From contig OZ237735.1 in assembly GCA_965178125.1 (NCBI GenBank), positions 1,674,001-1,738,000 on the forward strand: 64,000 nucleotides of DNA, given 5' to 3'. The position numbers and the translations under genes are program-made. Numbering within the stretch: position 1 is the stretch's first letter; every line of letters begins with the position of its first letter. Below the pieces are notes generated by a model, which saw only the letters and a program-made list of their open reading frames with translations, did not search any database and was not told where the DNA came from. This DNA comes from Bilabrum cf. latius. Lineage: Eukaryota. Positions 1 through 55,788 of the stretch are shown here, piece by piece.

Positions 1-218
1 CGGTCAAGCCATTGACTTTTCACGCTGCATTTTTAGCTGGAATCTGCCTTTGCCACTGTGCGACCACGCCGGCTCTGGATTGAAATTCTCCTCATCATTC
101 GAAATATGCTTCTTCAAATTCCGTCGTCGCGCCGCCGTGTTCCAGCGAGCAAGCACAGTTAGGCGCCTGGTCTCTTCGTCAGCAAGGCTGCCAGCTTCAA
201 CCTTCGGATTAGTTAAGT

Positions 219-3200: not shown

Positions 3201-6200
3201 CGCCAGCGTGGTCTGCCCAGGTTTGTGGGCGGGCCCCTGTGGGTGGATGAGTTCTCTGTGGTGGCTGGGGGTCCAATTAACGTGACATAGGACCATTCCG
3301 TGCCAAGTGCCCTGGCAGGAGAGTGGCGAGAGTCGACGGAGCAGGGCAAGCAGTACGTTGAATTCGTGGATGTTTCAGCTCTGCAAGACTCAGGTCGCTC
3401 TCGAAGGGAATCGGACGAAGAGGTGCACTTCGAGGACGACGCATTCGTGCCTGCACTGCCCACTTCACTCGCTTAGACGACCTATCCAGCTGCGCTCGCC
3501 TTCTCTAACGTTGGATTGCGGCGTCGCCGCATCCAGGTGCACGCAGCCGGGTGCATGCACGACCTACCACGCATGCGGTTTGAGGCAGTTTCAGTGGAGT
3601 TTGCAGAAGATTTGATCGCGCGGATGGCCCACGGGCGGGCCAGAGGCAAGCCATGGGGCCTTCCGCCGGTCATTCATGCCCTCACAACGGATGCCACGTT
3701 TGGTGAGGATGGAGCACTGCAGCAGCTCAACCATACGGAGGTGGAGGCGCGGAGCATCGTCGATGCCTTGCTATTGCAGGAACAGCTTGCATCCATGAAC
3801 CCGACGTCGGCTGAGTACGGCGAGTTGCTATCGCGGTAGAGCCACGCTGGTAATCTCCTGGATGAGTCCAGCAGCAGGGACAGCAGCAGCCGCAGCCTGC
3901 TGGCACAGAACAGCATGCTCGTTGGCCGCTCGATCTCCGGCATGGAGGCAAGCGCGACTCCGTTTGGAACCACTGATGCTGTGCTTAGAGTGATGGCGGA
4001 GATTGCAGCCGGGGAGAGCCAGGGCAGCACGATCCGTCGTGCTGCCCAAGTGGCAGCGGCGCAGATCCGTGGACTGGCAGCCGGTGGATTCTCCGTGTCC
4101 TGGCGGGATACTGCAGCGCCTCCTCTTGGAGGGTAGTTCAGACTGGCTGCACTTGCCACGCAATGGGATCGCCTCTATCACACGCCGCTGCAGGCGTGGT
4201 AGTGGCGCGAGTACCTCGCGGGTAGAGATGGATCATGGGAGCAGCTAGCCTTCGGACTCACCGTGCAGACGACACGGGAGACTTACGTTTCTGACCTGCT
4301 CGAGCTTATTCGGGCAGGACTGAACGTACAAGACCAGGCTGTATGGCTTTATGAGCTTGTCATCAGGAGCAACGCAACCGTATCGTTGCGCGAGTTGCTG
4401 CAAGGCGGGCAGCTGCGGCCTCATCATCCCGTCAAGCAGTTTGTTGACGCGATGGAGGGCGCACTGGGGAGCTCTGGAATGCTCGATGCAATGGCGGCCT
4501 ACAACGTCTCAGTCCTTGCCACACAGCCGCTTCTCGTAAATGCTTCCACGAGGCTCCTTGAGCTGGCTCTAGGTGAGTCTGGGCCGATCGGACACGGTGT
4601 GCAGCTGCAAGTGGAGCAAGACACATGCTTTTCCAAGACATGGAGGGTTAAATATCTGGGTACGGCATCGGACAGACCAAATCTATACGGGATCGATTGG
4701 GACCTATTGCAGGGCAGGAATCCATCGGTGCACTACTCGGATGAAGTGGATGGCGGTGTGTTTTGGAGACCGATTGCACCCGAGTCTCTACGGGTGCTGC
4801 ATGCCACCCCGCAGGTGACGGTTCGGCATCGCGAATCTGGGCTGTGGGCCGTCTGTGACGGTGACAGGGCTACGGATGAAATTTCAGACGGTGAGGCATC
4901 TGTCCCGCTGTTTGAACTACCAGGTCCCGGCGCGCTTGCATCGCAGGCGCAGGTATCTGGGCCTGCGGCCGCTGCGATGTCGCGTCACGGAGGAGCGTGC
5001 ACGTATGTCTACGCAGCATCGGCAGGCCCCACTGTCGAATCAGTGAGCCCTTCATCGGGCCCAGTCGGCACGGAGATAACCGTATCTGGTTCGCGGTTCG
5101 AGGCCGACGCAAGCGGGGCCGGGAACGAGGTCACGATCGGTGGGGTCTTGTGCAAGCCCTCCGCCGCGTCTACTGCCACCACCATCAAGTGCACGCTGGA
5201 TGCCGTGCAGTCCGCCGGTTAGTATGCCGTTCGCGTTCGTGTTGTGCGGCGGGGTCTAGCAAAAAGCTCCAACGCGACGCACCCGCCCATGTTCAGGCTC
5301 GAAGGTCGCATTGAGAGCATCACCGGCGCCGTGGTCGGGTACGGTGGCGATTTGGACCGTGTAGATGCTGCTGCAACTGGGGATCTGGAGGGTGTCCTGT
5401 CGACAGTCGCGGGCGGACGCCTCTTGACTGTCAGCGGCACTGCATTGCCTGTCCTTGCGCCTGATGCTTCGGGCAAGGAGCTCGTGGCTGGTGCTGAAGA
5501 CGCTCCAGCTGGAAGAGACCGCATCGACGTGCAGCTGGCCATCAGCTTTGATGCGATGGCAGCTGCATTCAGTTCACCACCTGGTAGCGCTCCATCAGTG
5601 CAAGACCGTAGTGCTGCTGCAAGTGCTGCTGGAGTGAATGAAGGAGACTCATTGCGTCTGGCAGTGCCTGTGGTATGGTCGAATGGAACAACAGCATTGC
5701 TGGTGGCACCTGCCCTGCCTGACGCTCTCGCCGCCAGAATGCTTGCGATAGAGGCTTCACCTAGTTTCATGGGCCTCGCTGGAGACCTAGACTTTGTGTC
5801 AACACCTTCCGGAAACGATGCTCGCAATAGCTGGCCGCATCCTTAGGCAGTCACGGTGCGTGCTCCCCCTGCCATTCGCTATCCGGCGGGGCCTGGTGTC
5901 GTGGCAATTACGGATGCCTCAATGGACGTTGTGAGTGGTGCCGGCGGCGAAACCTTGCAACTGACCATCAAGGAGTCCCTGGAAACTGCGAGTAGCAGCT
6001 TGACAGCCGAGCCATTCGTGTACTAGTGGCTTGAAGCCGCCCACTCGACTTGCGCATGCATGGGCTCCGATTTCTGGGAGTCCCAGTATGCTGGTGATTA
6101 CGGGTCATTGCCCCCTTCCATTTGCGGGGCTGGAGTGTTCGGCGGGTCTCACGTGTCTGGGGTCGGATTCGGTGGCAGAGCCTCGTGGGTCGATTCGGCA

Positions 6201-9200
6201 GCAAGTCCGTGCCTTGGCATCATCGGAGGTGGCGGGCCTGGCACCAGGCAGTGCGAAGCGGCTGCTGACCGGTTTGGAGCCAGAGCTCTGCTCAAACGCC
6301 ATCGAGCCGCGAGAAGTAATCTCCAGGAGGCAATCGCTGCTCGGGACCAGGGCGCAAGTGCCAACTAGGACCATGTGCTCGTACGCGGCATCGATTCTGC
6401 GGCGCTGGGATGCTCTTCTTACCGTGCTGACTTTGGGATGTCTTCCATGCTGGTCACAACGATGCTTGGCCCCTTGCAACTATCTACTGCGGGAATTCAG
6501 CAAGCTTTCGGAACGGAGGAAGAAGGAATCGGGGCAGATGATGAGACTACAGCGGATGGAACCGAAGTGCCAGCACTTGGCTTGACGACACCCAGCGGGA
6601 GCGTCGTAGTCGGTGGAGCCGCATGCCGCATCATCTCATCGAACACGACAGTGGTATCGTGCATGGTACCGCCTCACCCTGAACCTGCTTCCAAAGTGCT
6701 TCCGGTATCGCTGTACCTCCCTGGCGTTGGTGTTGTGCCCCGGAGACAAGAGCGCACACCGATTGCGTCGGAATCCCGCACGCAATCAGAGGATGAGATC
6801 CCCGGTCCTTCTACCGTGCTGCCTGGCCTTATGACCAGCTTGTCCGTGTCTGCCGTCAGCCCGTCATCAGGTGCGGTAGCGGGTGGCACCGTGGTGACGA
6901 TTATTGGGACCGGCTTCATGGGGGGCTACTCGGAAACGACCGCCAACGATTCGATCTTCGATTTTTCCTCGGAAGAATGCCAGCATTTGCAGGTCACAAT
7001 TGGTCCGACTCTTCTGTGCCAGGTGCAGAGCTGCTCCGAGGACAAAATCACCTGCGTCACGGAGAACCGAGCTGGCGTACCGGCGGCTGTGGACAACTCA
7101 GGAAGGAACACCGAGTTCGGTCTGGGCTACCAGTTCTCATCTCGAGAGGTCCGGGTGGAGGCTGGTGGATTCCTGCGAATCGCATGGACAGCGACACAGT
7201 ACACCGGCACGAAGCACGGTTTCACGCTAGCCACAAGAGAGGCGCCAAGAGAGCCAGGGCTACCTGCTCCTGCAGGATTTGCTTCGCCTTTCTCCCGCGA
7301 TGGGTCTTTTTGGCAGTGGTTTCCGTCGCCTGGCACGTACAACATTACCAGTAGCTCATATGGCTGGCTAAATTTCTCAGGGACTGTCAATGTACTGCCC
7401 TTGGCGGCAAGTTCACTGCCAGTTCGCGTTGTTGTTGCAGGGGTAGAGGCGAAGCATGCTGCAGGATCGATCGAAAATGCGACCGACGTGTAGGTTGCCA
7501 GTGTATCGTCAAGGTGTGCTGCGGTCCATGGAACTGGTAATGGCAGAGATAACTCGACCCGCCTCTCATTCACGTATGACCCTGACATGTCACCAACTTT
7601 GCAGTCAGTTGGATTTGAAGGACTGTTGCGGTCCAATGCATCAGCGGCCGCAAAGCGACTGCTTAGCCGGGAATTCGATGATGAAGACCTAAACAGGTGG
7701 AGAGGATGTGGCAGAGGCCCCCATCGGCCAGCTGCCTGTCCGTTCCTACGAATCTGCGCAGCGGACCCTTGGCTCGCGCCACAGCAGTGCCGGGGCCCGC
7801 GGGGATCGATCCTGCCCACTACATGGCGAATGGACGCAACGCCTGATGGTATGGGCAGATAGTCTTCAGACGAGAGTCTCTACTCGACTGCATTCTCATC
7901 CAGCACTCCGTGTGAGGCGTTGTTCCTCAGGGGAAAGAGGCTCGTGCAGCTGAGCCCAGCAGCAGCGGCCAACGCTGAGGCCAGTGCAGTCACGATCGGA
8001 GGGTTTAAGCAGTCTTCGAGCATCAACCTGCGAGACGCGCTCGAGAGCGGTGATGCCCTGTCTGGGCCTCGAGTATAGCTCAGACGTATAAAGGCAGGCT
8101 ACGACGAGGCCATCGTTCGGGGGGGCATGTACGGCAACCACGGGTACACTCAACCGTTCCAATTTGAAGGACATCAGTTTGACCTAGGCATGCATGGCAA
8201 TGCGACTGCGGACGCCCTTGTTGCTGGTGCCTCAACCATCTGCGCTCATATCGACGTTGCTTTCCGTTGGCCCTCCGCTAGTCAGCTCGGCACCGACGCC
8301 GATGTTCTCGTGCGCTGCGCGCTGCCTTGTGAGGCGGCTGCCCAAGCAGCTGCCTCGCAGCTGTCCAGCTCAGAGAGGTAGGTTGTGCAAGCCGCCTTCC
8401 CAAGCAGCCCATTACCGGCTGGTTCGTATTAGGTGCGGCTACAGGTTGCCAGCGCCCGTGACCTGATCGGAGCTTGCCCGACCTCGCCGGAGATAGCCAC
8501 AAGCACTGGGCTTGCTTCGATTGAGAACGGTTGGGGCTCTGACGTCGTCACCGTGGTGCCCGTTGTGCGAGGCACGGCTCCTCTATCCATGGGAGGGCGC
8601 ATGAATGCTGCAAGGGGAATGCGGACATAGGATTTAAAAGAAGGATTGGACGCTGCCATGGTCCAAGCCGCATGCGCGCTGCTCGGAGAAGGGGCGCCTG
8701 CGTTCGCTTGTGCTGAATCATCAGACTGGCAGAGCGCACGCTCCAGCAATTACCGGTCACTTGTGCTTACACTTTCGCCTGAGTCGAGCTACTCTGGTGG
8801 AATCACATCTGGTTCAGCTGCAGGCGGGCAGCTATTGCTATTGAGTGGGTCTGGCTTTTCGACTCGCATCTATGACACAGACGATGATGGTGACGGACTG
8901 CCGGATTCTTCGGCTCTGGGACACGGCGGTGCATCAGGTCGCGTGCGGCTTGTACCACGCGCAGATTCGCAGCTGGCTGCGGGAGACGGCAGCATGGTCA
9001 AGGATCTGACTGTCGATGGCAATGAGGTCAGAATTGGGACTGCACCGTGTCGCTTGGTCGGTGCAACTTCAGGTGGTCTCCTTTGCATCACCCAGCCGCC
9101 TCGTGATAATGGTGCCGTGGCTGCCCTGATGGAGTCTGCCCCTGTTGGTCTGTGGAGGTTCCACGATTGCGGCGTCAGCCATGAAATCCGTGGTTTGGCC

Positions 9201-12200
9201 CAGTTCGACGATGAGCTTGCCCTGGCACACCAGCACACGGCAGCATCTATAGCAATCGGAAGAGTAGGTGGCAGCAGCACGACTGGAGTGGGTGGCTCGC
9301 TTGAGAAGAAGACCGGTGCTAAGTGCGGCTCGTGTCGGCTCGGTTGCCCGACCGCGGGGTCCTCTTTGGGCTCTGGCAGGGGTGGGACCATTCACTACTA
9401 CTATGGTGGGAGTGGCGTGCGCGATTCCAATCCGCGCGGTGGCATACTGCTGCAGGAGCGGGGCGTGTCTGCCAAACTCGGATTCGGTGCATCCGACGTA
9501 TCGGTGTCATTTGATGGAGGATCCTTTGCCCGAGTCATGCAGGCAAGCACGCTCACACAAGATTCTATCCCTACAGCGCCGCTGAGCCTATTAGGTGCGG
9601 ATCCTTTTGGTGCGCTCCTCGCTTTGGAATCAATCAACGGATCGGTGCCGCACCCCAAGACCAACTTCGAAACTGCCGAGCTTGTGAACATGGCCAAGTT
9701 GCTCAAGGGTGTCGGTTACCAGGCAAGTAATGCCACGGCAGAATCAGCTCGAGATGCAGCAGTCTCACGCTGGGTGAACACTGGGGCCGAGCCGCGATAC
9801 CCTGACGTATGCGCTTCGTGGCTGGCGCGTAATGGTTCATTCTCTGCCCAGGCCTGGGTGAAGCCTCGCCATTTCAATGCGACGATGGATGCTAGGCTTG
9901 CACACGAGCTGATCAACGCTTCCGAGCGGCTGATCTCATCTGCAGGTCAATCTCCATCTGCCTCAGGAGTTGGCACCATCGTGGATGCCGCCGAATCGGC
10001 CGCCTTGGCTGCTGGTGACGCCAATTAGGACGGCCATGCAGACATGTGGCGATTTGTCCTCGGTAACATGCCTGTGTCTCGTCACGGCCCTTCGCGCGGT
10101 TATGCCATCTGGCTGGACCCAGCTGGGTACGCAGAGGCATGGCTCGGGCTCGGAGTGGATCCTGAAGCGCTTATGAAGGATGGCAAAGCGACGAGCGACG
10201 GTGCTGACGTGCTAGTCACTTGCTCAGCTGCAGCAGCAGCCATCGGAAGTACCGTGAACCAATTGGCTCTCGGTGGAATTGGGGGCTCTGTGTAGCACAC
10301 AAACTAGCTAAAACAGCTGGCGTCCAGCTACGCTGCCCGGCTGGTCTCGAACGGCAAGGCACAGCAAGCTGCCGAGAGTGTTGCTGCCGGACTTTTTCAT
10401 CCGTGGACTGTATGCGAGGAGGGCGGAGCGGCACTGCTGCGTATCAGTGGGACTCACTATGCGCCGGCGCAGCGGAGGTGGATGTTCGCTGCGGTGCACA
10501 GCCAGACGCCTGTCTCTGTGGGAAGCGATTTCTCTCTGCTGACCCTGAGCTATCACGATGGCTCTGCAGCTACCCGAGCCGAGACCCAGTTCCCGTGGGG
10601 CCGCGAGCAAGCGCCTCAGCCGAGCCTGCCCGAGCTGACGCTACTGGTGGATGGCACGGCCGCCGGAGCTATCCAACTTGATCCGGAGTTTGACCAAGTT
10701 TACATGCCAGCTTGCGAGGGGCAACTGTTCAATTCCGTGCGACCCGCCGCGCAGGATCCGAACAATGCCCCAGACCCCTCAGGCACGGAAGGTGACCTTT
10801 ACATTGGGTAGATTGGGCCGGCTTTCGAACTTCGCGTTGATATTCTGTAGCACGTGGTCGCAGGGGCAGGCATCGCTCCAGATGCGGCGATGGGGTCCTT
10901 CTGGCAGTCAGGAGAGGCAGCCGCTCGATTCCACAGAGTTGGCAACTACTCCGGCCACATCGCAGAGGTCGCCATCTTTGACCACGCCTTGGCCGCAGGA
11001 GTATCCAGGCGCGTGGCGGCTTTGGCTAGATCTGAGCTGCAGTACATAAACGTTCGAAGTGGTCCGTTTTCGGCAGAGTGTGCCGTGCCCGTGCCCAAGG
11101 CTGGCCTAACGGTCAGCTCCATCGATGATGTGGTAGCATCTGCAGCCCACGCAGCTGACTGGGTCGGATCAGGTTGTGTGTATCAGCACAGCATCGCACG
11201 TACGCCGGTAGTAAGGTCTGTCGCACCAATCACAGGATCTGGCGCAACCTCGGCCCCTCTCTCGCAGCGGACGGTGTTTATAACTGTCGATTCGCTCCCG
11301 ATTCCGCTTGAGAACGTGAACAACGAGACTGTGCGTGTGTCCCTCGTGAACCCGGATGCTGGTCCCTCGTATGACCTTGGGTGCAATGTTATTGGTGCTG
11401 CAGAGCTTCATCGCGATGCGACACCCTCTTGGCGGGTGCTTCTTGCGGATGACCTGGATGACAGTGATTTTGCAGCCTATGTTCAAAGCAACCTGGGTCT
11501 AATGACGGGCCCAACTTCAACGCTGAACTCGGGCTAGTACCTGCGGCGGACATGGAGCGGAACGAATGGCTCCGCGTTGAGGGCTCCTAGTGGATACTTT
11601 CATTCGGCAGTTCGTCGCACTGCAGTTGCATGCATCGCCGAGCCTGGCGTGGGAGCATGGTATGACGTCCACTTGAGCGTGAACGGCGTCGGTGCAGCAG
11701 CGACAGTGTGCGCCGAAGATCAGTTCTCAGGGTCTGGCCGTGCCGATGGTGTTACTGTCGCTTTGAATCGTCTCAAAGCAGCCGAACGCACAATTTAGTA
11801 GCTCGGTGGCAGCGAGGCTGGTGCAGGCGTTGCTCTGGCCGATCAGCCAAGGGGGGGCCTCGGCTCTCACTACAGCTCGGCAGTTTTTTCCGGCTGTCGG
11901 ACACAAACTCCGCCCGTTTGGCCGAATGAGTTCTTTGGAGATACGGTTCTGCCGATTGACCTGATCCGATCAGTGAGGTACACTCTTGGCTCTCTCGATG
12001 AGGTGACTTCCCCCGCACAGTGGAGGCAGCAGATCGTGATCAGTGACGTGTCTCCCTCAGAAGTCAGTCTCATGGGTGGTTCGACATTGACCATTAAGGG
12101 ATCCGGCTTCACAGACGACTACCGGGAGGCCACAGTCCTGCTTGGAAGGCGCTTTGACTGCCCGGTCATAAGCGCAGCACCGACCGAGATAAAGTGTGTG

Positions 12201-15200
12201 GTTCCCCCGCTCATCGGGCCCGAGGGACCCGTTGATGGTGCTAGCAGCTACATGCGGGGTGCGACGAACGCACACTGGTTGCAGCCGCGCCACGCCTTCG
12301 ATAGTTCGTAGTCTGCGCCTGTGAGTGAGTCTTCGTTGATCGCTATTGTCGACACTTCGAGTCTATTGAACACAACGACTCACCACTACTGGTGGGCAGA
12401 CCCCGGCCAGTCGGGCGAGTGGAACAGCACTGGTCCTCTGTCTGTGACAGTGACAGTTTCTCCTTTTGTTGAGAGGCACCGCACCCAAGGTCTTCGCGCC
12501 ACTTTTTTCATGCACAACTCGTATCCAGCTGACCGCCCCTAGTTCCCTGAGACGATTGACCCTATCGTTGGGGCACCATGGGGTCCCGTGGACAACAGCT
12601 CCATTCAGCCGCTTGGCGACTCCCGTTGGACTAGCGACATCCAGGCAATCCTCGAGGGATACATTTTGATTGACGTGCCAGGTGACTACAAATTCTTCCT
12701 CGAGTGCGACGATGGCTGTACGATGGGTGTCGGGCCTGGTACGGCAGGCAGGAGAGAAGGCTCTCTCAGCCGGATGCACGACTAGGTTTCTGCAGTTGAG
12801 CTGACCAGCGGTGAAACTGTCTTCTACCGCGAAATCATTGACAACTCGGGCTGGCATGGCCGACAAGAGCGCAGTAGTGCTGAAGCACTGTCAATGCGAG
12901 GAGGTTCCATTCCTGTCCGCATCGAGTACTAGCAGGGGAACCATGACTCCTATCTCTCCCTGCGTTGGGAGTGTGAGTCTTGCGGTATCGAGAAGCAACC
13001 CATCCCCGCCAACAACTTGGTCCATTTTGATGGTCCGGAGCGCAGCCCACTTGTGGCTTCAACCCTTGTTGGTGCTGACGCTGAAGCAGCCGCTTCGGAA
13101 TCGACTGCAGATCTGCCATCATTTGTACCACCACACGTCGGAGGATTGTAGTTCTCGGTAAGAGCCACACCTGTGATTCACTCAGTTTCGCCTCAATCTG
13201 GTGGGTATGGCTCTGTGATCACAATCTCTGGAGAGCGGCTATCTGCCGCTAGTGGTGGCTCTCGTGTGTCCATCGGTGGCGTGTTGTGCGCAATTCAGAC
13301 TGAATCTGCGACTGAAATTACTTGCACAGTAGGTAGGCAGGCCGCTGGGTAGTACCATATTGCTGTACATCACAGCATTCTTGGGTACGCAGCTGCCCTC
13401 TCGCGGAATGTGTCGGTGTTTGCGCACATGCTGGAGGTTACATCAGCGCCAAGCCCAGGCATTGTTGGACTTGGCGGAGGATCAATGTTGACGATCCACG
13501 GTAAGGGGTTCGACTCCAGTGACCAGCCTCGTTGTGTAGTTTCGATGCTGCCACCAGAGGACTAGTCCAGGGCACAGCCGCAGCACAGAAGCGATGCTGA
13601 CGCCTCTCTGTCCGGATTGCTCGGCGGGTCAAACGAAGCTGCCCTCACATTCAATGACGATGTGATTAGCTGCTTGGAAACTGACAGTGATGCGTCCTCT
13701 AGAAGCCCAACTCTGGGCGTGAGGTCGTCTGCTATTCATACACGCTTGTCGTCACGGGTCATGTCCGACGCTGAAGCTGAAGCGGGGATTTTTGCGTCCA
13801 GCTTGGCAGAGAGCTGGTCGCAGCCCGGCCTATCTCAATTAGTCACCGTTTGCGGGTTACCATGCTCTGTAATGACGGTTTCGTACTCAGAGATTAAATG
13901 CGAGCTCCCATCCCTCGTTCCCACAGAGTACCTTGCACCCAACCAGAGCACCAGCTAGGTTGCAGCGGACTCCAATGCTGCACGGCTTGAGCGTCATCTG
14001 GTGGTATCATCAGAAGCCGGGAGTTCCGTATCTGACTCGGTGAATGGCGCCTTGGTACTCCAAGGGAACCCTGGATCCAGATGGTACGACACTCAGGATA
14101 CCGCGATTGAGTTCACGCGAAATGCGCAGGGCTCGCTGCAGGTGCAGTGCAGTGTCAAAGTGTCCATAGCTACGGCAGGACCATCTCTATCTGGGGTCTC
14201 TAGCCCTTAGGTAACACTGGAGTCTGTATTGAGGGCCTCTCGTGCTCTTGCGATCGGCGCTCGGCCTCAGGAACAGGATCGTCACGAACCACATGTCGTT
14301 GCAGCTGCCGCCATCAGCGCGCGCGAGCAAGCAGAGGCCGCTTCGGCCCGTGCTGGGACTCGCCAAGTCAGCCCATTGCTCGTGCAGACAACGACTACCG
14401 CAGCGAGCATGATCACGTTTGCCGCCGAGTTGACTCCGGTGGTCCGCGGCATCTCGCCTTCACTCGGAGGCACGGCTGGAGGAACCATGGTCACGGTCCG
14501 TGGATCCAGGCTTTTCCCGGCCAACAAGGATACCAGCGGGATTCTGGCCTCCATCGACGGGGTGCCTTGCGTGGTTCAATCTGGCTCTGCGCAGGAATCA
14601 TCGTCAGGGTAGGCCTCGCAGCAGTCCTTCGTGTGCAGGACTGGCAGACACACCTACACGCCCGAGTCCACCTTGTCGGTTGTCCTTGCTCCAAGTCAAG
14701 CTGGCACCGCAGCATCGTCCCAGCCTTCGGGCCGTGCTGTTCAATTTCGTTCCCGTTTTAGGTATGTTGACCGGTTCAGCTCGCGGTACACGTGGGGCGG
14801 CGAGTCACCGCCGACAGAAGGTCAGTCTATCGTGGTACGCGAAGGGCAGACCCTACTGCTTGACACGTCCCCTCCCCAGCTGAAGCTTGTGCTGGTGGAA
14901 GGTGGTAGCCTTGTCTTTGATCCGGACGCCACTTCTCCTATTCGCTTAGATGCAGAATACATCTTTGTCGACAAGAACGGCAGGGTGGAAGCGGGAACAG
15001 AGGACGAGCCGTATCTGGGGAGAGCCGTGATCACCATGCACGGCACCTCGCGCTCGCCCTAGATTCCTCTGTACGGAAACAAAGTACTGGCAGTCCGTAG
15101 GGGAACGCTAGATCTGCACGGACGCCCCGTCAGGCACTCCTTCACTCGACTAGCATGCACAGCCGTGCCCGGAGAAAAGGTGTTGCTGCTGCAAGACGAC

Positions 15201-18200
15201 GTCATGGAGCCGACAGACGAGGAGTCACGCAACAAGCGCACTGCCGGATGGAGCATTGGTGATGTCATTGTCATTGCACCCACGGGAAGGAAACCGCATG
15301 AGGATGAGCAGCGCAGGATCGTCGATATCCGAGCTCCAACTTTGACCGAAATCGAACGTGCGGCATCATCAGGGTTGCTAGGCGCGCCTGGTTCAAGAGT
15401 AGGTTCGGTTGTCGTCCTCAACTAGCCGCTGGAGTACCTTCATCTTGGTGTTACTCAGCGGGTGGGCGATATTCGGGAGGCATCCACCGGTGGGGAGTAC
15501 GCAGGGTCACGGACGTCCTCCGCGCTGGCTGCCGTGCTGCCGCGCGTCGATCCCCAGGACATCGAGTACCGCGCTGAGGTCGGATTGCTCTCGAGAAACG
15601 TCGTATTCCAAGGGGATTTGAACGAGGAATTTGCTAGGGCCCCGTCCATTCAAAACGAAGAAGAAGCCATCGGCGAGCTCGGCAGGGTTCGGACCGACGG
15701 CCACGGAGCTCACATCTTCATGCACGCAGGATGCCACGCTATAGTGGGAACGAAGTGGACTCGTGATCCCCAATGCACGCTCATCTCTCGCATTTCCAGC
15801 GTAGAGGTCAGAAATAGCGGACAAATGTTCCAGCTCGGTCGATACAGCGTGCATCTCCACCTGGCTGGCCAGGCGTAGGACAGCTACATCCGAGGCAGTG
15901 CCATTCATTTTACGTGGAACAGGGGCATCACGCTGCATGGCTGCCACCGCTACGCCGTTGAGAACAACGTGGTCCACGACACGCTGGGGCACTCGATTTT
16001 CGTCGAGGATGGCATAGAGTCTGACAACAGGATCGCTGGAAACCTTATCATGCGCACGCGATCCGCGTTCAGTTTGCTGAATACTGACGCACTGCCGGGC
16101 GGCATCTGGACCCAGAGTCCCTCAAATGAGTTCGTGAACAACACAGTGGTCGGGAGTGAGGCCTGGGGGTTCTGGCTCGACACTGACGCTGACGCACCTT
16201 CGGGGCCGTCTTCTTCTGCTCGCGTGTGTCTCGCAGGTCTTCCTCTCGGCAGCTTGGACAATCTGGTTGCGCACTCCAACTAGCGCGCAGGACTGTGGAT
16301 TGCCTTTGAATGGGAGCCCAATGATGCTCCCGGGGGATGCGGTGGGAAAGGCATCACGGTTAAACCTCGCCGCGCTACTATCAACCACCTGGTGTCCTGG
16401 CAGAACAACCAGGGTGCAGAGTTCATTGGCGTATCTTCCGTGACTCTTCGGGACTCCGTGTTGATTGATAATGACAACCATGCAATGAATTGGGAAGGTG
16501 GAGAGCTTGGCGTTATATAGTACTCCATTCTGGCCGGTCAATCGCCGCTCTTCCGTGGCGGCGTCGGTGTGGTCGTAAGCGATGAGGATATTGCAGCAGG
16601 TCGGTATCATCCGGACGTCGGGCTTTCAGATGGAGCCGCTAGCCCCGTGGACGCCGGCCTGGCTCCATTTCCAACCAATGAGTACACTGAGAACCCCCAC
16701 TCTAGGTACTTCAAGGATTGGTGGCCCACTGGACGGAGGTACCGCTTCAATCCCACTCTGCTTGGAGACGATGATGCCGGGACGGTCGGCGCAGTGCAGC
16801 GGTACTACACGTAGAAGTCTCTGCTGGAGCATACGCTTGCGCGTGCTGATGGAATCAAGGCGAACAGGCCGTATCGCCAGGCAAAACAAGGCATCAGGAC
16901 TCCCGATAGTCACAACTTCCGCATTGATGACGTCATTTTCCAGTTCTTCGAGCAGGGTAACACGTCCTGCATTATCGTCCAGTCTGGCGGCGCTGCAGGT
17001 GGGTACACCCAAAGGACGTCTAGGCTAGCGTTTGACCGAGCTACGACGAGAGTGGATCTATCCGGTGACCACGATGGCGTGCTTATCGACGAAGACGGAT
17101 CCATTCAAGGCGGTGGGGCGGTCAGCACTGACCCTGGCTTCGCTGGCGCCCCGATCGTGCCGTCGGCGTCTATTTTTCCGCTGGAAGCTCGATGCAGGCT
17201 GCAGACGTGGCCAGCTCGCTCTGGCAATCCACGCTTTGATCGGCCGTCGTCTGTTTGCCCTGGCATGACCTTCCGGCGAGTACACTTCCATAGTCATTCC
17301 CCCAGTTTCGACGATGACAAGCCGCCCATCAGAATCACTTCACCGTACGGATCAAGCGGTGCGCCCTTGTATAAGCACGACGACGTTCCGTTTAAGTCGT
17401 GGGTGGTCGTGCTGTATCGTGGCGGTGATTTCAGGCCCACGTGGCTGAGCTCCATTGAGATTGACTTCTTGCGCTACACTCTGCGACCAAGCTTCGACGA
17501 TATCGACGCAGTGGATCAGGACTTCTGGTGGGTGCACCACGGAGTGCAGGTTAAGCCGCATCACTATCATTTTGGTAGCACGTATGACTCGAAGGCAGAT
17601 CTGCCTCGCATCGTGGACCCGCTGCCAACGCACACGGAGCGTCCGCCTTACAGCTCCTCCATCAGGCTGTCATCCAACTATCGCACACCGTATGCCATGG
17701 GCGACTCTGACGATGCCGTGGTGCACATGCTACGGAGCGCCGACCAGCCTGATCGCAGGCAGTTGCAGATTGGTACGAAGCACACAAGCCCCAGCGGTCA
17801 TGAATACACGGAGCAGTCCGTAGCTTCAGCACCAGCGCTGGGCATCGACACCGGGGACCATCCGGTGCAGTTCACCTACCTGTACACTAGCCGAGGAGAA
17901 ACGCCGATGCGGAGACTGTGCCCTGATGCAGGTTGCTTTGTCGGTCCACCGATCGACGCAGAGCAGCAAAAACGAAGATGGTCAGACCCGCTGTTGTGGG
18001 CGGATCACCCTCTTGGCAGGGTGCCTAGGTCTGACGATGCCGTGGAGATCCCGCAGGAGTGGTGGGTGCTGCTCGACGTGAGCACTCCAGTGCTGCGCAA
18101 CCTAACTATCCGAGGGACTCTCGAGTTGCTGGATGAGTCCGACCTTACGATCACCGTCGATGGGCCACTCCTCGTGCTCGGTGGCAGGCTGATGGCTGGA

Positions 18201-21200
18201 GCCAATGAGTCCCATCCATTCACGCACTCTGCGGTGATTGAACTGCGCGGCGACCGGCAGACCCCGGAACTGGCGTTTGACAAGGACACCACGTTTGGAG
18301 CCAAATCAATTGCAGTTGCCGGGGAGCTCTCCCTCTTTGGTGTGGCTCCCGCGCGGCCGTGGGCAAGGCTTGCACGCACTGTGTCCGAGGGCGACAGTGA
18401 GCTGCTTCTGGAAGGGAGCCTGCTCGAAGCAAGATGGCCTGCCTCCCATTCTCAAGATATGTCCCCGCTTGAAATCTACGATGCAAGCGTTGCCAGGAAT
18501 GGAGGGGATCCTAGCGAGCCACTCATCCACGACGCACAGCTACAGCGGGCGGCTGGTCTGGGCTGGGGACGTGCCTGGAGTGTCGGTGACGAAGTAGTCG
18601 TGTCACCTACGGATTATGATCCCCACGAGACAGAGACACGGCACATAACTGCGATTGAGCTTCGAACGTTTGACGATGCGGATGATCTTGCTGCAGCTGG
18701 GATGGCGGCCCTTCCATGGGAACCTGTGAACGGGCCATTCCAGCGCACATCTGTTACGCTGGACCAGCCAGTCCTGTTCCGTCACTTCGGAGAACTCTCT
18801 TGGTCGAGTCATGGTCAGACTCAAGGGGTCGACTGGGTGGACACCCGAGGCGAGGTCGGTATTCTAAACCGAAACGTGAAGATTGTTGGCGCTCCTACCT
18901 CTAAGTTCCCGGCGATGGAGGGGCCAATGCGACCCTTGGAAGATGGTGAGTACTTCGGGGCCACAGTGGTAGCTCGAACTCTTCGAGTACGGCGGACCCA
19001 AGGCGTTGCTGCAGACGCCACCTACATGCCCGCAGTGGCCCTGGCTGGAGTGCAGTTCCAGCATGCTGGCCAGCGTGGTTGGTGGTCGGCAGCACGCACC
19101 GGGGCGGCAGTGTCGTTGCGAGACGTATCCGGCACTGCGGTACTCGACAGCAGGTAGCAGGCTGCACTCAATGCACTTTAGCGCGAGGGTCTTGTCTACA
19201 GGTCTAGGCAGCTCTCTCGAGTGGTGGGGTGCTCGTTCCACACCATATACAACGGGGCCGTTCACGTCGTTGGCAGCTCCGTGTCCGTTCCTGTGGAACG
19301 AAACGTGGTCTACCACTCCTATGGCCCAGCCTTCAAGTCCGTGGAGTCGTCTCGACGCACGAAGTTCGTGGGGAACTTGGCGGTCCTCGGCCTGCGGAAG
19401 CACTTGGCGTGGCTTTACTTCGAAGAGGAGCTCGGGGCGACCAGGCCGCCCAGCTCCACAAGTGCTACCGCTGTTGGCGACGATGATGACGACGGCCAAG
19501 GTGTCTCTACCATTGATGCAACTGATCCTAGGTGGGGACCCTACGTCGATAAAGACATGAAAGAGCCCTTGATTAACATTGAGTCAGGGGAGCGGGAGCT
19601 TGACGGTCAGTTCGAGGCAGAAGGACCGGGTGTCGTTCTTGTTGGCAATGCTATTGCTGGCTCCGACTCCCGCGGAGGATTCATCGTGCGCTATGCCGAC
19701 CCTTGTGAGCAGGAGAGGGCACAGCTGCTGAGTGGATCTGCACAGATTCAAGACGACTAGACCCCACCTGGCCTGGTGCACAACCGTGCAAATACTGTGC
19801 ACGGGGCGTTGCAGTGCTTGAGGATCCGACCGGTCGCAAAGGCAAGGCTTGGACAATGCGTCGCGCTGCGAGGGTTCTCAATGAGCAAATGTGCAGACTT
19901 TGGGGTGTTCTCGTACGTTGGCTCTTCGGTCGAGGTGTCTGGGCTCCGCATGGCAGACGTGCAGATCGGGGTCAGCATTAACATAATCGGACCGTTTAGC
20001 GATGCTCACAAGTTCGGGGACAGGGACGCCTCAATTACCGACTCTGTCATCGTGGTACGATCCACGAACCAGCGCACACGACAGGATGGACCAGGACCAG
20101 ATGGTGTCCCGCTGTTTGCACCCGGACAAGAGCCAAGCAGCTGGCTGTAGGCAGTGCAGCGCACAGCGAGTCAAGAAATGCTCAGCCCAAAGGCATTACA
20201 CAGAGCCTACCATCCCCTGTACACCGGAGCGTTTACTTCGTATGGTTCCTGTCTTGCTCCCAACCCGCAGTGCACGTCTTTAGATTGGAACCGGCCCAGT
20301 GCAGCGATTCAGGTGTCTGGGTTTGCGACCAAGGGCTCCCTGGGCCCGTGTTTTGGCCGCGAAGACGGCATGACGCGGGCCAACCCTGCCATTCGGGGCA
20401 GGACGCACGTGCGCAATGTGGCAATCGGCGGCCTTGGCATTGACGTGTGCGGCCGTCGCGCAGTCGGCATCGCGAGCTCGCCCTCGATGCCCGACCTTTA
20501 GCACCCAATATACACAGAGCGCATTCGTTGGGGCCTTGGTGGCGGCAGGCACGTTCAGACCATGGCACAGCTGGAGCCGTACAAGGTTCTCTTCTACCGC
20601 GCTCAGCTGAGTGATCTCAGCGGTGAGGACTGCGTGGGCGATTTCTGCAACGGGGCTAGCAACATCCACATTGCCGACCTCGACGGATCTTTCCTTGGTG
20701 ATCGCGCGGTGGGAAGAACCACGGATCTGGTTGACTTTGTGCCTGATGCTAGCAGCGCATCAGCTGCTATTGCCTCGCTTGTGCAGAGGACTGGCGTAGC
20801 AGGCACGGTGATTCCTGTCGCGGAGACTGGCTGGGACCTGTCTGGCCGCGATGATCGGATCCCTGCTCCGATGAAGACAACGCCAGCTGGCAATGCGATC
20901 GCCATTGATGTCGTGAGACCGCAGCGGGGGCTTTACAGAGGTGACGGCAACGGCACGGCGTGTTCTCTGGAGCCTGGGTGGAACGCTTACGCCTGCCGTG
21001 GTGATGCCAGGGCTGTACTCGTCTTCGAGTCTCTCGACAGCGACAGCAAGACCAGGAACATCGCACCTCTGTTCCTCAAGACAGGAGAGTATGCGTCCTC
21101 GTGGACGAGCGCGAAAGACTTCGGCTGGTGCAGCGGTGGGTTTACCTGTCGCAGGAGGCTCTCGCTGTTTGGCACATCGGTCCCTCTTCGTAGGGACACT

Positions 21201-23645
21201 GAAGCCTACTTCTCCGGGTCCAATCCCGAGAGAGTGCGCATGCACCTCCTCAACGCCGAACAGACCAAGCAGGTGCAGGTACACGGTACCGAAAGTGGAC
21301 AAGCAGTTGCGGGCATCGGCGCAGGCTCGCACGCTTCCAACCGTGGTGCTGGCCTTAAGGTGGCCTTGTGGTACGGAACGTCGCAGAGAATTGACGTTTA
21401 CAGGCAGGGTGTGTATATTGAGGCCCAGAACGCTCAATTTGAAGAGGCCTGCAACGATGCAGCCAGGCGATTAGACTGTGAGCGCTCAGTATTGACGCCA
21501 ACGGACGGAGGAGAAGGAGGGTCGAACCCCGCCGAGTTCATCCCAGACTGGAGGTCCGACCACCCCGCCGCCAATTATCGCGAGCGCACGACCGGCATGC
21601 TCCACGTGGTTGTCAAGGGAGAGGCGCCCATCACATTGGTGGTTGCGCCTGTGGTGCAGATCAGTATGCGCATGGATGTGACCCTGGAGGAATTCTTCGG
21701 CGCCAATCTGCTGCGCAACCTTGCTTTCGTCCTTATGATTCCCATGTCCTCCGTCAGGCTTGTGGATGTCATCCCTGAGGACACCCAGCTGTCCAACCGG
21801 CTCCTGCAGGAGGGCGTGAGTAGGGCACTCGAGATCACCCTGCAGATTGGTGAGGCCCCCGCACTCACTATGGATGAGTCACGGCTGGAGGAGGTCACGG
21901 ACCCCGCGATTGAGCAACTGTGGCTTGAGGGTGACCCCGACACGGTCGTGGCTCTGAGCAACAATACCGACCCGGCCACCTTTGACGGGGTGGCGCCAGC
22001 CAACGTGGATGCGTTCCGGGCGTCCCTCCGAGCGCAGGCACTTGCCAGGGCTGCCCAAGATGCCATTTCGTCCGGGCGAGTCTAGGAGCAGGTGGCACGC
22101 GAGACAGGTGTCAATCTTGGCATCCAGGTATCTTCGGTGCAGGTCCAGGCGCCCAGCCTACCGCCCATCGTGGATGGGGCCCTGCGCGAGCAGCTGAGCG
22201 ACGATGCCCCGCAAGAGCTGCAGCTTGCCGTCGACGCGATGTGGACATCAAGCCCCGGCTGCGCGGTGGAAGTCTCCGCGGATTTGCCAGTGGATGCATC
22301 CATGGCGGACGATGCAACATCGTGGGAAGAGATGACCGCAGGTATCAAGGTAGTGATTTCGACCCCTTCGCAGGCCCATCTGAACGGTACCACGACCGAG
22401 TCGATCTGCGAAGGCTCTGCTGCGGGTGTGGTTGCTACCGTGGATGCGCAAGGAAGTGCAATTAGGGCCCTTGTTGGAGCAAGACCGGTCCTCATCAGCT
22501 TGTACCGCGTTGGCAAAGCCACCGACGCGCTAGTGGGGGCGTGGTCAGCGACAAACGGTTACAACCAAGTGGCTGCAGGTGTGAATGCAAGCTCCGCCGC
22601 GGCTGCTTTCGACATCAATGCGAGCCCAGCCGATGTTTCTCGTGCATGGGCAGCCGGGCTTGTCGGACAGACGCCCCTCGCAGGCCAGACGCAACTGGAT
22701 GACCCCACAGGTCTTCTCTCTGCCCTTGTCGGCACCGGATTGACAGGCGAGGTCGCTGGCGGCTCCAGCGCAGTGGTACCCGAAATCGACTCGTCGACCG
22801 GAGAGCTGGCTTTGTCTGGCTTGCTGCCGCACGACGATCTCATCGGCGGTACCTACGTGCTTCGTGCTCGGGTCGTGCTTCCTGTGGACGAACGGTCTCA
22901 CCTTAGGGCAGCTGTTTCGGAGCAGGCCCGCCGGCTGGGAATCCAACTGACGCGTTTGAGCTCTCGCGACAATGTGCGAAGGCAGCTACAGACCGGCTCG
23001 GACAGCGCGGGTGGAGTCCAGGGTGCCCTGGCCGTGTTTGATGCTTACTCAACGCCGTTTGTGGTTCTGAACGGCACTGTTGTCGTACAGAATGGCGTGC
23101 AGGCTAGCTTCGATGCCGCTGTGGCAACACAGTACCCAGAAGGGCGCCCTGGGGCCGCGAGAGACGGTCCTGATGGAGACAGCAGCGGCGGCTTGTCGAC
23201 AGGTGCCATCGCAGGCATTGCGGTGGGTGTCGGGCTCGCAGTACTGGTGACTATCGCAGTGTACTTCCTGGTGGTCCGGCGTGGAGGCAGCTGTGGTGGA
23301 TAGGGTGGTGCTGCGGGGCCGTCGCGTCGAGTGAGCCAGTCCAAACCGACGAACTGCGGCTCCAGCAGCGCTGGTTCCAGTCGTGCCGGTGCAATACAAG
23401 GCGCTGCTGCACTGAAAGGAACCAAGAACTCCGTGAAAAACTGGGACGATTCCCGTCCAGCTAGTAGCAGGATGCACCTGTATGCTGCTGCCAACCCATC
23501 GGTGCCCGTGCACGCCGGTGCGGCTCTTGGCCTGGACCAGGGCCCGCGGACCCCGTTGGCGTCCAAGCAAGGACCTGCTGCAGGATTCGATTCGGGAGTC
23601 TCGGGGGGGGAGTTCAAGGGGTCCAACCCGATGGCGAGGGTATGA
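219..23645 (+). CDS. Giant fibrocystin-L (PKHD1L1)-like type I membrane protein, ~7,808 aa, single exon, read with TAG as sense
   Basis: ATG 219 gives a signal peptide (MIILLLAGFLPAAVAG) and then an IPT/TIG repeat (VTEVSPRYGSLAGG). The track ORFs at 474, 936, 1779 ... 22092, 23331 share one frame. I translated the gaps and found only TAG interruptions (~54), with the first TGA at 23643-23645. Recognisable parts: many IPT/TIG repeats, PA14 (~1725-2100 and ~12490-13030), a cupredoxin-like segment (~7100-7400), LamG-like (~9140-11040), G8 domains (~14790-15120, ~17975-18340), beta-helix repeats (GQMFQLGRYSVHLH, IFVEDGIE), DLDGSFLG, and a C-terminal TM helix (~23205-23275). Confidence 0.9.
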
Positions 23646-31306: not shown

Positions 31307-34120
31307 ATGAGCGAAAACAATAGTTCCTCGAGGAGATCGTAGTATTTGTAGCCTGCAACAGCTAGTATCGCCTAGAGTGCTCCAGAACCCGAAGTTAGTG
31401 ATGAAAATGGCCTGGACTTTGTTGCGGAGAGAGGGTAGCGCATGGAATTGGCTAGAAGAAGGCTGGATGAGCTGCGGGAGCGAAAGCGATAGACAAGGGC
31501 TGGCGAAAATACTGACGATATTGACGCCCTGATGAAGGAGTTCGGAGAAATGGGCCAAAAAGGGGCACAAGGTGACCAGCCGAAGGGCTCAGAGGAGCTG
31601 CAGCGAGAGGTTCAAGATTTTGTGGAAGCGTCTGTCATGAGTGACCCTCATACTGCAGATCTGGTGAAGCGAGGCTTGTCCTCCAAGGATGCAGAGCAGC
31701 AGCTGGTGCCTTTCTGGCGGCAGGGTAGCAGGTCCTCGCAGCCGCTACTCGGAGACGATGGTGTGGACAAGCTGCCGACTGTTGGGCAACGCATCAGCGA
31801 AGCCATTGGAACTGCACCATCCCCTGCTTCTGTAGCCGAGCGATAGCACCCTACCCCTCGGTCTTCGTCCGATTCGCACGCCGGCCTTCCGACTCCAGCA
31901 CCTGCAGCCGACGACGAGACGGCAGATCTTGCCGGGGACGGAATCTTGAGAACGACCGAGGATGCGGCGGGTGCATGCTCCAGTGCCCTAGGATCGAGCT
32001 TCGGGCGGCGGCTGCTGGTGCGCTCAGCCGTTCGCTCTATGCAGCACGCTGCACCCACCTCGCGCAAGGTGGCTCCGGGTATGGCACAGTTCCCGTACCG
32101 CTCCAGCTCGCGTGCATCCAAGCCGTGGGGTGTGACAAGTGAAGGGATGCCGGTGCACGTGCCCATGGCCGCGCTGCTCGCTCACGAGCGGGAGGGAACC
32201 CTGGCTGTCGCCGCGGCTGGTTCACACGCAGCCGGGGGGTCGCAGCCGAGTGCTGCCCAGCGTCTCGAGCAGCAGTCAGAGTGCCTCGCGCTGGCAGAAT
32301 CCTGGGAGGCGCACGCCTCCGCCGCAGATCGGATCACGGGCAGGCTGCGGCGGGTCACCATGGGCCTGACTGGGGGCCAGCGTGAGGGCGTTCTCACACC
32401 CTGGGACTCCATGCTGCGGCTGCAGCAGAAAGCAGGTAGTCAGGACCGTGCGACTTCTTAGCAGCGGCTTCCATTGTCTTCCCTTCAAAAAGGACTGCTG
32501 GACCGATTGGGCGGCCTGGATACTCTGCAAGGTGCGGCCGCTGGGCAGGCATCCTTGGGGTTGCCCCCTTCTGTGCGGAGAGAGGTGGATGCGATGCGGC
32601 GCGAGAGTGAAGCCGCTCTCGTTGGTGTGCTGGGCCCGCCCTGCATCTTTCACAAGAATGCAGCAGAAGATGAAAGGAAGGGGGCTGCGAGCAGCCCAAG
32701 CCGAAGCAGTGAAGGTGCGACCGACGGCAGTCGCATAGCACAAGAACGGGAGCTGCGCCGGGCTGTTCAAGGCGTGACGAGTGCGCCCGGCTGGGCTTTG
32801 TAGCGCGCGCGCCGCTTCGGAGTGCCGCTGTCGATCGACGGCCCGGGCACCGCCGCCCTCGGCCTGTCGGGGACTGACCTCGGGCTGCTGTCGGATCGCT
32901 CTGACGTTCGGGCCATGGGCTCCTCCCTGCTGGCGAGGTTCGCGGCAGGGATGGTGTTGGCGGCCCCTTTCGGACCCATGGCCATGCTGGCTGGGGCGAC
33001 CGACGTGGCGATGCAGAATGCGGCAGCCTCTGCCGCGGCAGCCTCCGGCACGGCGGGAGGGGGCGCAGTGGTTGCCAGCAGCAGCGGTGGCAGTGCCGCT
33101 GCCGCCGCCGCTGCGAGTGCGGGCGGCTTGACCATGCGGGCTGCCATGGTGGGCAGCATGGCGGCAGTGGTCCCAGCAGCCATGCTCTTCTTTGGGAGCT
33201 ACTGGACGTTCGAGTACGCCGCGCGGTGGGCCCTCGGCACTGCGAGGAGGCTCGTGGACGGGGAGGCGTTCGAGGGAACAGAGCGAGCGCGGGCAGCGGC
33301 CCGCGCCCTTGTTCTCGCGAACCTAGGCATGCTTGGTGCAGCGAATGATGACTCTGGGGGCTCCTCGTACAGGCTTAGGGGCTTCTTGCCGGGAGCAGGG
33401 GACGAGCGCAGGCTGCCGCCGTCGCGGCCTCTGGCCGGCGGTGCCCTGCCACAGTCGGTGGAGGGCGTGCTGGAAGAGCCTCTCTGGGACTCGGAATCGT
33501 ATGCAAGTGCCGTGACGAGTGCTGGGCTGGGTCGCGTGCTCGCCCTGCGGAGCTTTGCGGGCATGGACGGCGTGGAGCTGGCACCGGAACAGGTGAGGGG
33601 CGAGACCAGGGGCGAGACCGGGTCTCGATCGGGGGAGCAGACGGTGGGCAGGGGGCAGCACCCCGAGGAAGATTCTCCCGACTGGCTGCTTGGGAAGCAG
33701 CGACCTGGGGAGTCGGAGGGTTACTACGCTGCGAGGGTGCTGGAGGGGGCGGCCAGGGCGCGGGCGGTGCTGGCCGCACCCCAGCACCTGCACCTGCAGC
33801 AGCTCGAGTCGGAGCGGCTGACGGCTGACTGGCTGCGGCTGAGCAGCGCCAGCGGCGTGCCGCCCTCGTGCGAGAACTCGAGGCAGATCGCCGCGTGGAT
33901 GAGCGCCGGGCTCGCCGCCGGCTTCGTGCTGAGGCAGCACAGGGGTGCCATCTTGGGAGGCGCGCCGGGGGTCGCGCCTAAGGTGGCCTTCGCAGCTGCC
34001 ATGGTCTTGGGCCCTGCGCTCGCCCCTTCGGTTCTGGGCGACTTCGAGAGCAGGGTGCTAGTGGTCGCCAGGCGAACGCTCGCGGCTCCACGCTGGGCTG
34101 CCATGGAAGATGCCAGTTGA
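31307..34120 (+). CDS. Hypothetical protein with hydrophobic C-terminal segments, ~937 aa (8 in-frame TAG)
   Basis: ATG 31307 is in frame with ORFs 31532, 31946, 32474 and 32822, with only TAG interruptions and TGA at 34118-34120. Gly/Ala-rich hydrophobic helices weakly resemble Tim17-like membrane proteins (unverified). Confidence 0.65.
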
Positions 34121-34275
34121 TGAGCCGGCGTTGTTCCGGTTCCGGCCGAAGAGACAGGCTCGGTTCATTTTGCCGTGTGGAGGACCACAAACACAGTAAT
34201 CTTCGCGCCATACTGCGACAGTCAAAGCGACTCATCATCCCGTTGCTGCTAGGTAGACTTCAGAGGGTCTCTACG

Positions 34276-44089: not shown

Positions 44090-44114
44090 GGGGCTGACAT
44101 GGATGGTGGATCAC

Positions 44115-53764: not shown

Positions 53765-54145
53765 GATTGGTCCTATCTGCTCTGGCTGATGACGCAGCGA
53801 CGTTCTGCCGAGAAAGCCTGTTTGTGCACGCTACAAAGATCCAGCCTGGACTCAAGCACGTGAGACCGCAATGGAGTGGTTAAGAAGATCAGATGCTAAA
53901 AATACGCGCGTGCTGACTGCACCGGACCGAGAGCTGAGCTAAGATGCCACAACGACAGTACCAGGAGTGCACCGCAGTCACACGAGTGTCAACACATGGT
54001 CCAGCTGCCAGCTTGCCAGCCAGCCGGCTCCCGGCACCAAGGTCCACTTTCCAAACTGACTAGAAGCAACCTCAGATCTGCTACCTGACGGATCCCCGCC
54101 CTCGCGCACAACTTCCTCTCTCACCTTGACTATTGAGGAGCACGA

Positions 54146-55594: not shown

Positions 55595-55788
55595 CAAATA
55601 TCAATTTGTGGGTAACAAGACAGCAGGATCGTGGGCTTCTCAAAACAGCAAACAAACGGGAATAAAATGCCTCAGTCGTCAAAACGATGCTCCGATCGGT
55701 AATCGTTGCTAAAATTATTGTTCTGACAATTCCGCAGCTGGTAAATCAGTGGGCTACAGCAATTGCCCTCCCTAAGTTATTTTTGAAT
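55595..55788. promoter_or_regulatory. Probable bidirectional promoter region (194 bp)
   Basis: AT-rich spacer between DHCR7 and the divergent Ser/Arg-rich gene; positional inference only. Confidence 0.4.

Follow-up and report, generated by a model that had tools for sequence, protein, structure and literature searches.

In-frame UAG codons, probably read as glutamine, in the nuclear genome of a presumed bicosoecid stramenopile

Genes of the window and their in-frame TAG codons

The window analysed here is a stretch of 64,000 nucleotides (G000:C1:1674001-1738000) from an assembly of 48.6 Mb in 111 contigs. It holds a fibrocystin-L-like gene and fourteen further frames, which together are counted below as the 15 window genes, and no tRNA gene was found along its 64,000 nucleotides. 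The features to which the text refers are the following (positions in the window, + forward strand, - reverse strand; residues in one-letter code where counts are given).

84..23645, +: fibrocystin-L-like gene, 7,854 codons with 55 TAG, first ATG at 219, stop TGA
11796..11801, +: tandem TAG TAG, in frame, within the fibrocystin-L-like gene
12930..12932, +: TAG in a PA14-like stretch, one homolog aligned (F), uninformative
15060..15062, +: TAG within the first G8 domain, with Glu in 31/35 homologs and thereby the strongest individual site against Gln
15423..15425, +: TAG, column variable among 34 homologs (E 10, P 10, Q 3)
20499..20501, +: TAG in PDL-x-HPIY, Gln in 13/24 homologs
33982..36885, +: frame of a TRM5-type tRNA methyltransferase, 5 TAG, stop TGA
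37044..38063, -: frame of the fatty acid hydroxylase family, 2 TAG within the Pfam domain, stop TGA
44394..46151, -: MFS transporter with a single TAG (45111), retained by a spliced contig from run X5
46827..50993, -: long frame of low complexity, its 10 TAG all covered by a single X5 contig and all TAG there
51805..53851, -: intron-containing sulfatase gene, TAG 51922-51924 retained by a spliced contig from run X6
54146..55600, -: ERG4/ERG24 sterol reductase, 1 TAG within the Pfam match, which extends up to the residue directly ahead of TGA
62005..63999, -: JmjC gene (3' part) with 8 TAG, two of which form the tandem pair 63478-63483, present in X5 and X6 contigs

The product of the fibrocystin-L-like gene matches IPT/TIG, PA14 (weakly), two G8 domains and the CEMIP beta-helix in Pfam and has a C-terminal hydrophobic segment; its homologs are fibrocystin-L proteins. 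When TAG was read through, the 7,854 codons of this frame contained 55 TAG and neither TAA nor TGA. The five other frames over 84-23645 carried 12-46 TAA and 84-218 TGA apiece, indicating that a frame left open by TAG alone is far beyond chance. Reading TAA as well as TAG left the long frame unchanged among the matches listed. The reading through of TAA or of TGA instead of TAG was also tried, and it gave no comparable window frame. Together, the 15 window genes contained 120 TAG, 510 CAG and 202 CAA in 18,399 codons. The fibrocystin-L-like protein, at about 7,800 residues, is nearly twice as long as animal fibrocystin-L (about 4,200), and its gene is apparently intronless. The sterol reductase at 54146-55600 and the frame at 37044-38063, of the fatty acid hydroxylase/sterol desaturase family, hint at sterol modification in a bacterivore-type flagellate.

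A sequence-only reading of the window had proposed that UAG most likely encodes Gln, with Glu as the main alternative, and had cited TAGs at 20499, 15423, 12930, 15060 and 11796-11801 on the forward strand and at 51922 and 63478-63483 on the reverse strand. All of them stand at these places, the forward ones inside frame 84-23645. The motif EDLQHPI, which that reading had named for this place in fibrocystin-L, is real and is read by 4 of the 24 homologs aligned at 20499, where Gln is the commonest residue (the next being M 4, N 2 and S 2). The context SP-x-IPLYG at 15060 had been singled out as Glu-like, and it proved to be so. The other contexts described as polar and Gln-like were weaker than claimed, since column 15423 is mixed and 12930 has its single homolog with F. 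The five cited contexts, of which one favours Gln and one strongly favours Glu, are insufficient to decide on their own, and with Gln at 20499 and Glu at 15060 the evidence from the window is split. At a further TAG of the same gene, 16281, 25 of 30 homologs have G. This window tally used 35 fetched homologs, and with any aligned homolog at 26 of the 55 TAG and few conserved columns it is not decisive. The proposal is borne out, though not by those sites alone.

UAG in spliced transcripts

Four sequencing runs were aligned to positions 44001-64000 of the window. In two of them, X5 and X6, which come from two different studies, contigs skip GT-AG introns; none of the runs is registered as RNA, and the RNA status of these two rests on the splice joints. 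The listed pieces of X5 cover 25 and those of X6 cover 11 of the 33 in-frame TAG codons, and no other letter was found at any of them. Of those covered by X5 or X6, 12 lie on spliced contigs. The comparison was made with contigs and not with raw reads, and rare variants drop out of contigs. This indicates that UAG is part of the mRNA and escapes wholesale editing, with the proviso that partial editing could go unseen in contigs.

These data bear on whether the TAGs stem from faulty assembly, from damage to pseudogenes or from sites that undergo U-to-C editing to CAG. The loss of rare variants from contigs would hide partial editing, and the RNA nature of X5 and X6 is only guessed. Damage, however, predicts TAA, TGA and frameshifts as well, and the 7,854 codons of the long frame have none; TAG is retained in the spliced contigs of both studies; and there is a dedicated tRNA with a CUA anticodon, conserved in a relative (see below). 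We regard error, damage and editing as largely refuted and give them next to no credence. Two other runs, X10 and X11, come from relatives of the organism that are mostly under 95% alike, and among the 40 differences listed of about 1,857, none touches a TAG.

The amino acid at UAG columns

The sequence-only reading had suggested a tally of the residues that homologs hold at TAG columns. For this, we took 19 dynein heavy chain stretches of 10 kb each from the same genome; the column tallies therefore rest on a single protein family. Eighteen of the 19 are open over about 3,330 codons only when TAG is read, with 3-49 TAG each, and the 19th has one break when TAG is read through. In a profile tally with 120 homologs, which kept 167 of the 280 dynein TAG (confident columns, at least 60 homologs), the summed log-odds were +15.9 for Q, -189.6 for K and -208.6 for E. 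As a control, the same tally gave back the standard residue for all 61 sense codons. At conserved columns (at least 70%) the residues were Q 36 and E 10 of 72 under TAG, Q 400 and E 62 of 770 under CAG, Q 47 and E 15 of 99 under CAA, and Q 42 and E 718 of 1,050 under GAG. By Fisher's test, the Q:E ratio under TAG was set apart from that under GAG (1e-31) and not from that under CAA (0.82). When each gene was compared instead with its nearest homologs, up to 25 of them (246 of 270 homologs, those of at least 1,500 aa; 72 of 280 TAG kept), the log-odds were +78.3 for Q and -77.7 for E over the 72 TAG, and the counts were Q 30 and E 6 of 49, and a tally on the genome's own dynein paralogs gave Q 16 and E 0 of 19.

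At dynein columns where one residue reaches at least 90%, TAG was found at 24 of 595 Q and 8 of 826 E columns, never at K or S columns, and at 0 of 581 W, 1 of 2,393 L and 1 of 625 Y columns. This bears out the earlier view that Trp, Leu and Tyr fit poorly, and the choice of Gln with Glu as runner-up was sound, as dynein TAG columns behave like CAG and CAA columns. TAG makes up about 9% of Gln-family codons in the dyneins and 14% in the window genes. Per dynein, its share ranges from 2% at GC3 near 0.9 up to 25% at GC3 0.54 and follows that of CAA, meaning that TAG behaves as a minor synonymous Gln codon. The claim that TAG often neighbours CAG or CAA held up poorly in the 15 window genes (12 cases vs 9.3 expected, p=0.22), and with the dyneins added it was borderline (44 vs 34.0 expected, a ratio of 1.29, p=0.05).

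Could UAG encode Glu, as it does in the ciliate PL0344? The site at 15060 speaks for this, as do the 10 of 72 conserved dynein TAG columns with E; moreover, a single base separates the anticodon CUA from CUC of Glu, and the CUA tRNA has A37-C38 in common with the genome's own tRNA-Glu. Against it, Q:E is 36:10 under TAG and 42:718 under GAG, other dyneins of the genome have CAG or CAA at 8 of the 10 E sites, and TAG adjoins Glu at 0.73 of expectation, compared with 1.22 for Glu codons. We consider a Glu meaning effectively refuted.

UAG might also be mostly Gln and partly misread, as Glu or Tyr, if a chimeric CUA tRNA were charged by more than one synthetase. At the strictest columns (at least 90%) Glu was in excess under TAG (Q 24:E 8) relative to CAG (321:26; p=0.004), and the nearest-homolog tally leaned towards Glu in a similar way (19:5 under TAG vs 246:18). 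The CUA tRNA retains two of the determinants of eukaryotic tRNA-Tyr, C1:G72 and U35, and TAG stands at aromatic columns in the GluRS gene, where one TAG lies opposite W and Y in two solved orthologs, and in one dynein, at an invariant Y column. Compared with CAA, however, the Glu excess at the 90% columns was not significant (p=0.12), and the 10 Glu-column sites fall on 7 distinct columns and are not independent. With CAG or CAA at 8 of these 10 sites (5 of the 7 columns) in the genome's own paralogs, ordinary Glu-Gln exchange explains most of them. In addition, a single mutation turns GAG into TAG, which should make TAG the favoured codon at recent E-to-Q changes; as for Tyr, TAG occupies a single one of the 625 Tyr columns, and the determinants A73 and G34 are missing from the tRNA. 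Partial misreading is improbable in our judgement.

Stop codons and the release factor eRF1

Gene ends anchored by homology were 18 TGA, 4 TAA and 0 TAG, in a small sample of 22. The 18 dynein ends comprise 15 TGA and 3 TAA; 16 of them lie at most six residues from the profile end and 2 lie beyond it, with no TAG in between. The other anchored ends are those of eRF1 (TAA), GlnRS (TGA), GluRS (TGA) and ERG24 (TGA). The absence of TAA from the 7,854 codons of the long frame and the use of TAA to end eRF1 and three dyneins do not agree with translation table 6, in which both UAA and UAG are Gln.

The eRF1 gene (G000:C35:454483-457782) has introns and two in-frame TAG codons, one of which is the last codon before an intron. 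It was compared with 86 of 120 homologs (those of at least 420 aa), with numbering after the motifs in PMC5304391. The first TAG falls on a column with Gln in 82 of the 86 homologs and the second on position 69 (L in 82, Q in 4), a site at odds with a Gln meaning. While GTS, E55, NIKS and S70 are retained, the protein shows rare changes: S60V in TASNIKS (1/86 homologs), N30D beside GTS (0/86), and S-H in place of N-K in YxCxxxF (2 and 0 of 86). The eRF1 of Cafeteria roenbergensis has S60, N30 and L69. According to the available text of PMC5304391, L69A in eRF1 raises UAG read-through. S60V, N30D, Gln at position 69 and the YxCxxxF changes are candidates for a lost recognition of UAG. Synthesis of eRF1 itself requires both of its UAG codons to be read through, and it is possible that they act as a feedback loop on termination.

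UAG could be both sense and stop according to its place in the message, as in the Condylostoma or Blastocrithidia type. Such a dual meaning would suit the retention of GTS, E55, NIKS and S70 in eRF1, and the gene ends number only 22. None of these anchored ends is TAG, however, and two window frames carry an in-frame TAG 4 and 17 codons upstream of their TGA or TAA stops, ends that are not fixed by homology. We therefore hold a dual meaning to be very improbable.

A tRNA with a CUA anticodon

A tRNA gene with the CUA anticodon, in single copy in the genome, was found at G000:C23:907607-907679, and the frames that flank it have 18 TAG each. The tRNA family search scored 63 of 780 candidates. 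No tRNA with a UUA anticodon was among seven hits of a pattern that misses tRNAs with introns. The CUA tRNA folds into an ordinary cloverleaf with a 5-pair anticodon stem. Pyrrolysine decoding was considered and rejected, given this ordinary cloverleaf and the lack of any PylRS (TIGR02367) match in the genome; the 'Pyl' label that ARAGORN attaches to the tRNA derives from its anticodon.

The closest own relative of the CUA tRNA is tRNA-Tyr(GUA) (G000:C1:272024-272096), with 50 of 73 positions alike, vs 42 for both Gln tRNAs. The two share 12/14 positions of the acceptor stem and 8/10 of the anticodon stem, C1:G72 and a 5-base variable loop; in the acceptor stem, no other own tRNA matches the CUA tRNA at more than 6 of 14. 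With the genome's own tRNA-Gln(UUG), the CUA tRNA shares the whole D stem (8/8) and G73, and only 2/14 of the acceptor stem. A search of metagenomes was made with a pattern of D and anticodon arms that left the anticodon free, the free positions being picked with tRNA-Gln in mind, and it gave 79 UUG and 1 CUA among 80 loci listed of at least 120. Owing to the way in which the pattern was built, this ratio shows that the arms are Gln-like and not that the tRNA descends from tRNA-Gln. The CUA locus, on metagenome contig Ga0136560_1009680 (L137), is an ortholog alike at 71/73 positions, whose two changes form a compensated acceptor pair. In viral contigs, the tRNA pattern had 0 matches.

In a review of tRNA identity, the available text of which lists A73, C1:G72, G34 and U35 as eukaryotic Tyr determinants and G73, G10 and U35 among the bacterial Gln determinants, the entry for eukaryotic Gln is blank (PMC9976931), so an argument on charging borrows from bacteria. 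The CUA tRNA has U35, G73 and G10:C25 and is without A73 and G34. By this analogy, the loss of A73 and G34 together with the presence of G73, G10 and U35 fits charging of the CUA tRNA with Gln. The genome encodes a GlnRS (E 1.5e-149 to human GlnRS), whose 751 codons read contain no TAG, as well as a GluRS.

A Tyr origin of the CUA tRNA can be proposed, in which the acceptor and anticodon stems were kept and the switch to Gln came about through the changes G34C and A73G together with a D arm of Gln type. In E. coli, the A73G tyrosine suppressor is a Gln-mischarged amber suppressor. A Tyr origin, if true, would supply a natural eukaryotic counterpart of such Gln-mischarged E. coli suppressors, which combine G73 with U35 (PMC9976931, in part). 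It contrasts with the published expectation, in the available text of PMC5304391, of a one-letter change in tRNA-Gln(CUG). That this is the first nuclear code change in a stramenopile, and one brought about by a tRNA derived from tRNA-Tyr(GUA) rather than from tRNA-Gln, is a tentative proposal that we think somewhat doubtful.

Other tRNA genes of the genome also deserve mention. Eukaryotic tRNA-Ile usually has the AAU anticodon; here, two nuclear tRNA-Ile genes have GAU (G000:C32:91173 and G000:C4:952092), and tRNA-Ala and tRNA-Thr have AGC and AGU, respectively. Six dispersed tRNA genes have a CAU anticodon (G000:C3:1096994, C5:282086, C7:1154419, C3:1133102, C9:698618 and C25:323122). Their acceptor stem and variable loop are like those of tRNA-Pro(UGG), which lies 316 bases from one of them, and they are perhaps carried by a mobile element.

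A probable nuclear code with UAG as Gln

Altogether, these results suggest, with a probability of roughly 0.92, that the nucleus of this bicosoecid uses translation table 15, in which UAG is Gln and UAA and UGA are stops. Conserved genes have in-frame TAG, TAG columns hold Gln, TAG is never an anchored end, spliced contigs contain UAG, and a CUA tRNA is present with no UUA tRNA found. In the mechanism that we propose, the CUA tRNA would be expressed and charged with Gln by GlnRS, would read UAG but not UAA, and would out-compete an eRF1 whose N domain may have lost its grip on UAG.

A nuclear code in which UAG alone is Gln (NCBI table 15) is described for Iotanema spirale (PMC5304391, in part) and for the ciliates Hartmannula sinica, Trochilia petrani and Protocruzia tuzeti (PMC11687900, in part). 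Iotanema and the three ciliates are alike to the present organism in having UAG as Gln and UAA and UGA as stops with no sign of a dual meaning. They differ in lineage, since Iotanema is a fornicate and the present organism a stramenopile. The stops differ too: the available text reports UAA in 86.9-98.3% of genes in phyllopharyngeans, while UGA is the main stop here (18 of 22 ends) and the G+C content of coding DNA is about 60%. The decoding tRNA, found here, was only predicted for Iotanema (PMC5304391, in part) and was not found in H. sinica or T. petrani (PMC11687900, in part); the available main text of PMC11687900, PMC5304391 and PMC10089648 reports none for a table 15 Gln case. Finally, GTS of eRF1 is intact here, whereas Iotanema has T32G (in the portion available).

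In other nuclei UAG has taken on different amino acids. According to the accessible part of PMC11687900, it is Leu in the rhizarian exLh and the TARA phyllopharyngeans, Ser in Scotinosphaera, and Glu in the ciliate PL0344, in which UAA is Lys. As here, a CUA tRNA uncoupled UAG from UAA in these cases, but the amino acid is a different one. The eRF1 of exLh has L69A (in the text available), whereas position 69 is itself TAG-encoded in the present organism, and Gln is found there in 4/86 other eRF1s. Tetrahymena, hexamitins and ulvophytes read UAR as Gln (table 6; PMC11687900, in part). They likewise have Gln at UAG by way of a tRNA-Gln(CUA), but here UAA is a stop (4/22 ends), the long frames have no in-frame TAA, and no UUA tRNA was found among the pattern hits.

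The 2024 list of UAG-alone reassignments in nuclei, as given in the available part of PMC11687900, comprises a rhizarian, Iotanema, Scotinosphaera and a few ciliates, and no stramenopile. No nuclear code change in bicosoecids is named in the accessible text of PMC6972860, PMC6723347, PMC11412368 and PMC10120064, and in the incomplete literature at hand we found no report of one in any stramenopile, although the depositors may already know of it. We regard the present organism as a further, independent instance of a code already known, in a major eukaryotic lineage that is new to it. A change in the meaning of UAG without one in that of UAA is rare in nuclei, and the case departs from the usual picture by its G+C-rich coding DNA and by UGA as its main stop. 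It also brings all parts together: the tRNA, GlnRS, eRF1, a near-chromosome assembly, transcript data, and Cafeteria with the common eRF1 residues. Two questions thereby become testable, namely what lets eRF1 give up UAG while still recognising UAA and UGA, and what makes a CUA tRNA acceptable to GlnRS; both are useful to amber-codon engineering in eukaryotes. Standard gene callers will truncate many proteins of the lineage, and viruses that infect it have to deal with this code.

The organism and its relatives

The best named match for a dynein and for eRF1 was Cafeteria roenbergensis. In a dynein tree, the organism was sister to a Cafeteria pair with an SH-aLRT of 99; the tree has 34 rows (33 of 120 homologs and the own gene), was made in quick mode with a midpoint root, and represents one gene. 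From these sequence comparisons, we take the organism, a marine flagellate, to be a bicosoecid stramenopile. The dynein branches are long (0.39; 0.37 plus 0.095), which makes a genus distinct from Cafeteria likely. Contig C111 is the mitochondrion (38.4 kb, 24% G+C), with in-frame TGA and a UCA tRNA. Mitochondrial UGA is thus Trp, as in C. roenbergensis, for which, unlike for the present organism, the available text of PMC6972860 names a non-standard code for the mitochondrion only.

A protein 88% alike to the organism's own eRF1 (P0157) is another sign of close relatives. The ortholog of the CUA tRNA, the relatives seen in X10 and X11, and this protein together suggest that the code probably marks a small clade. 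An 18S gene array was found on C12. A second 18S gene (G000:C95:6099-7900), 83% alike to the C12 array, lies on a contig of 17.9 kb that bears telomere-like repeats, and it probably comes from another eukaryote in the culture.
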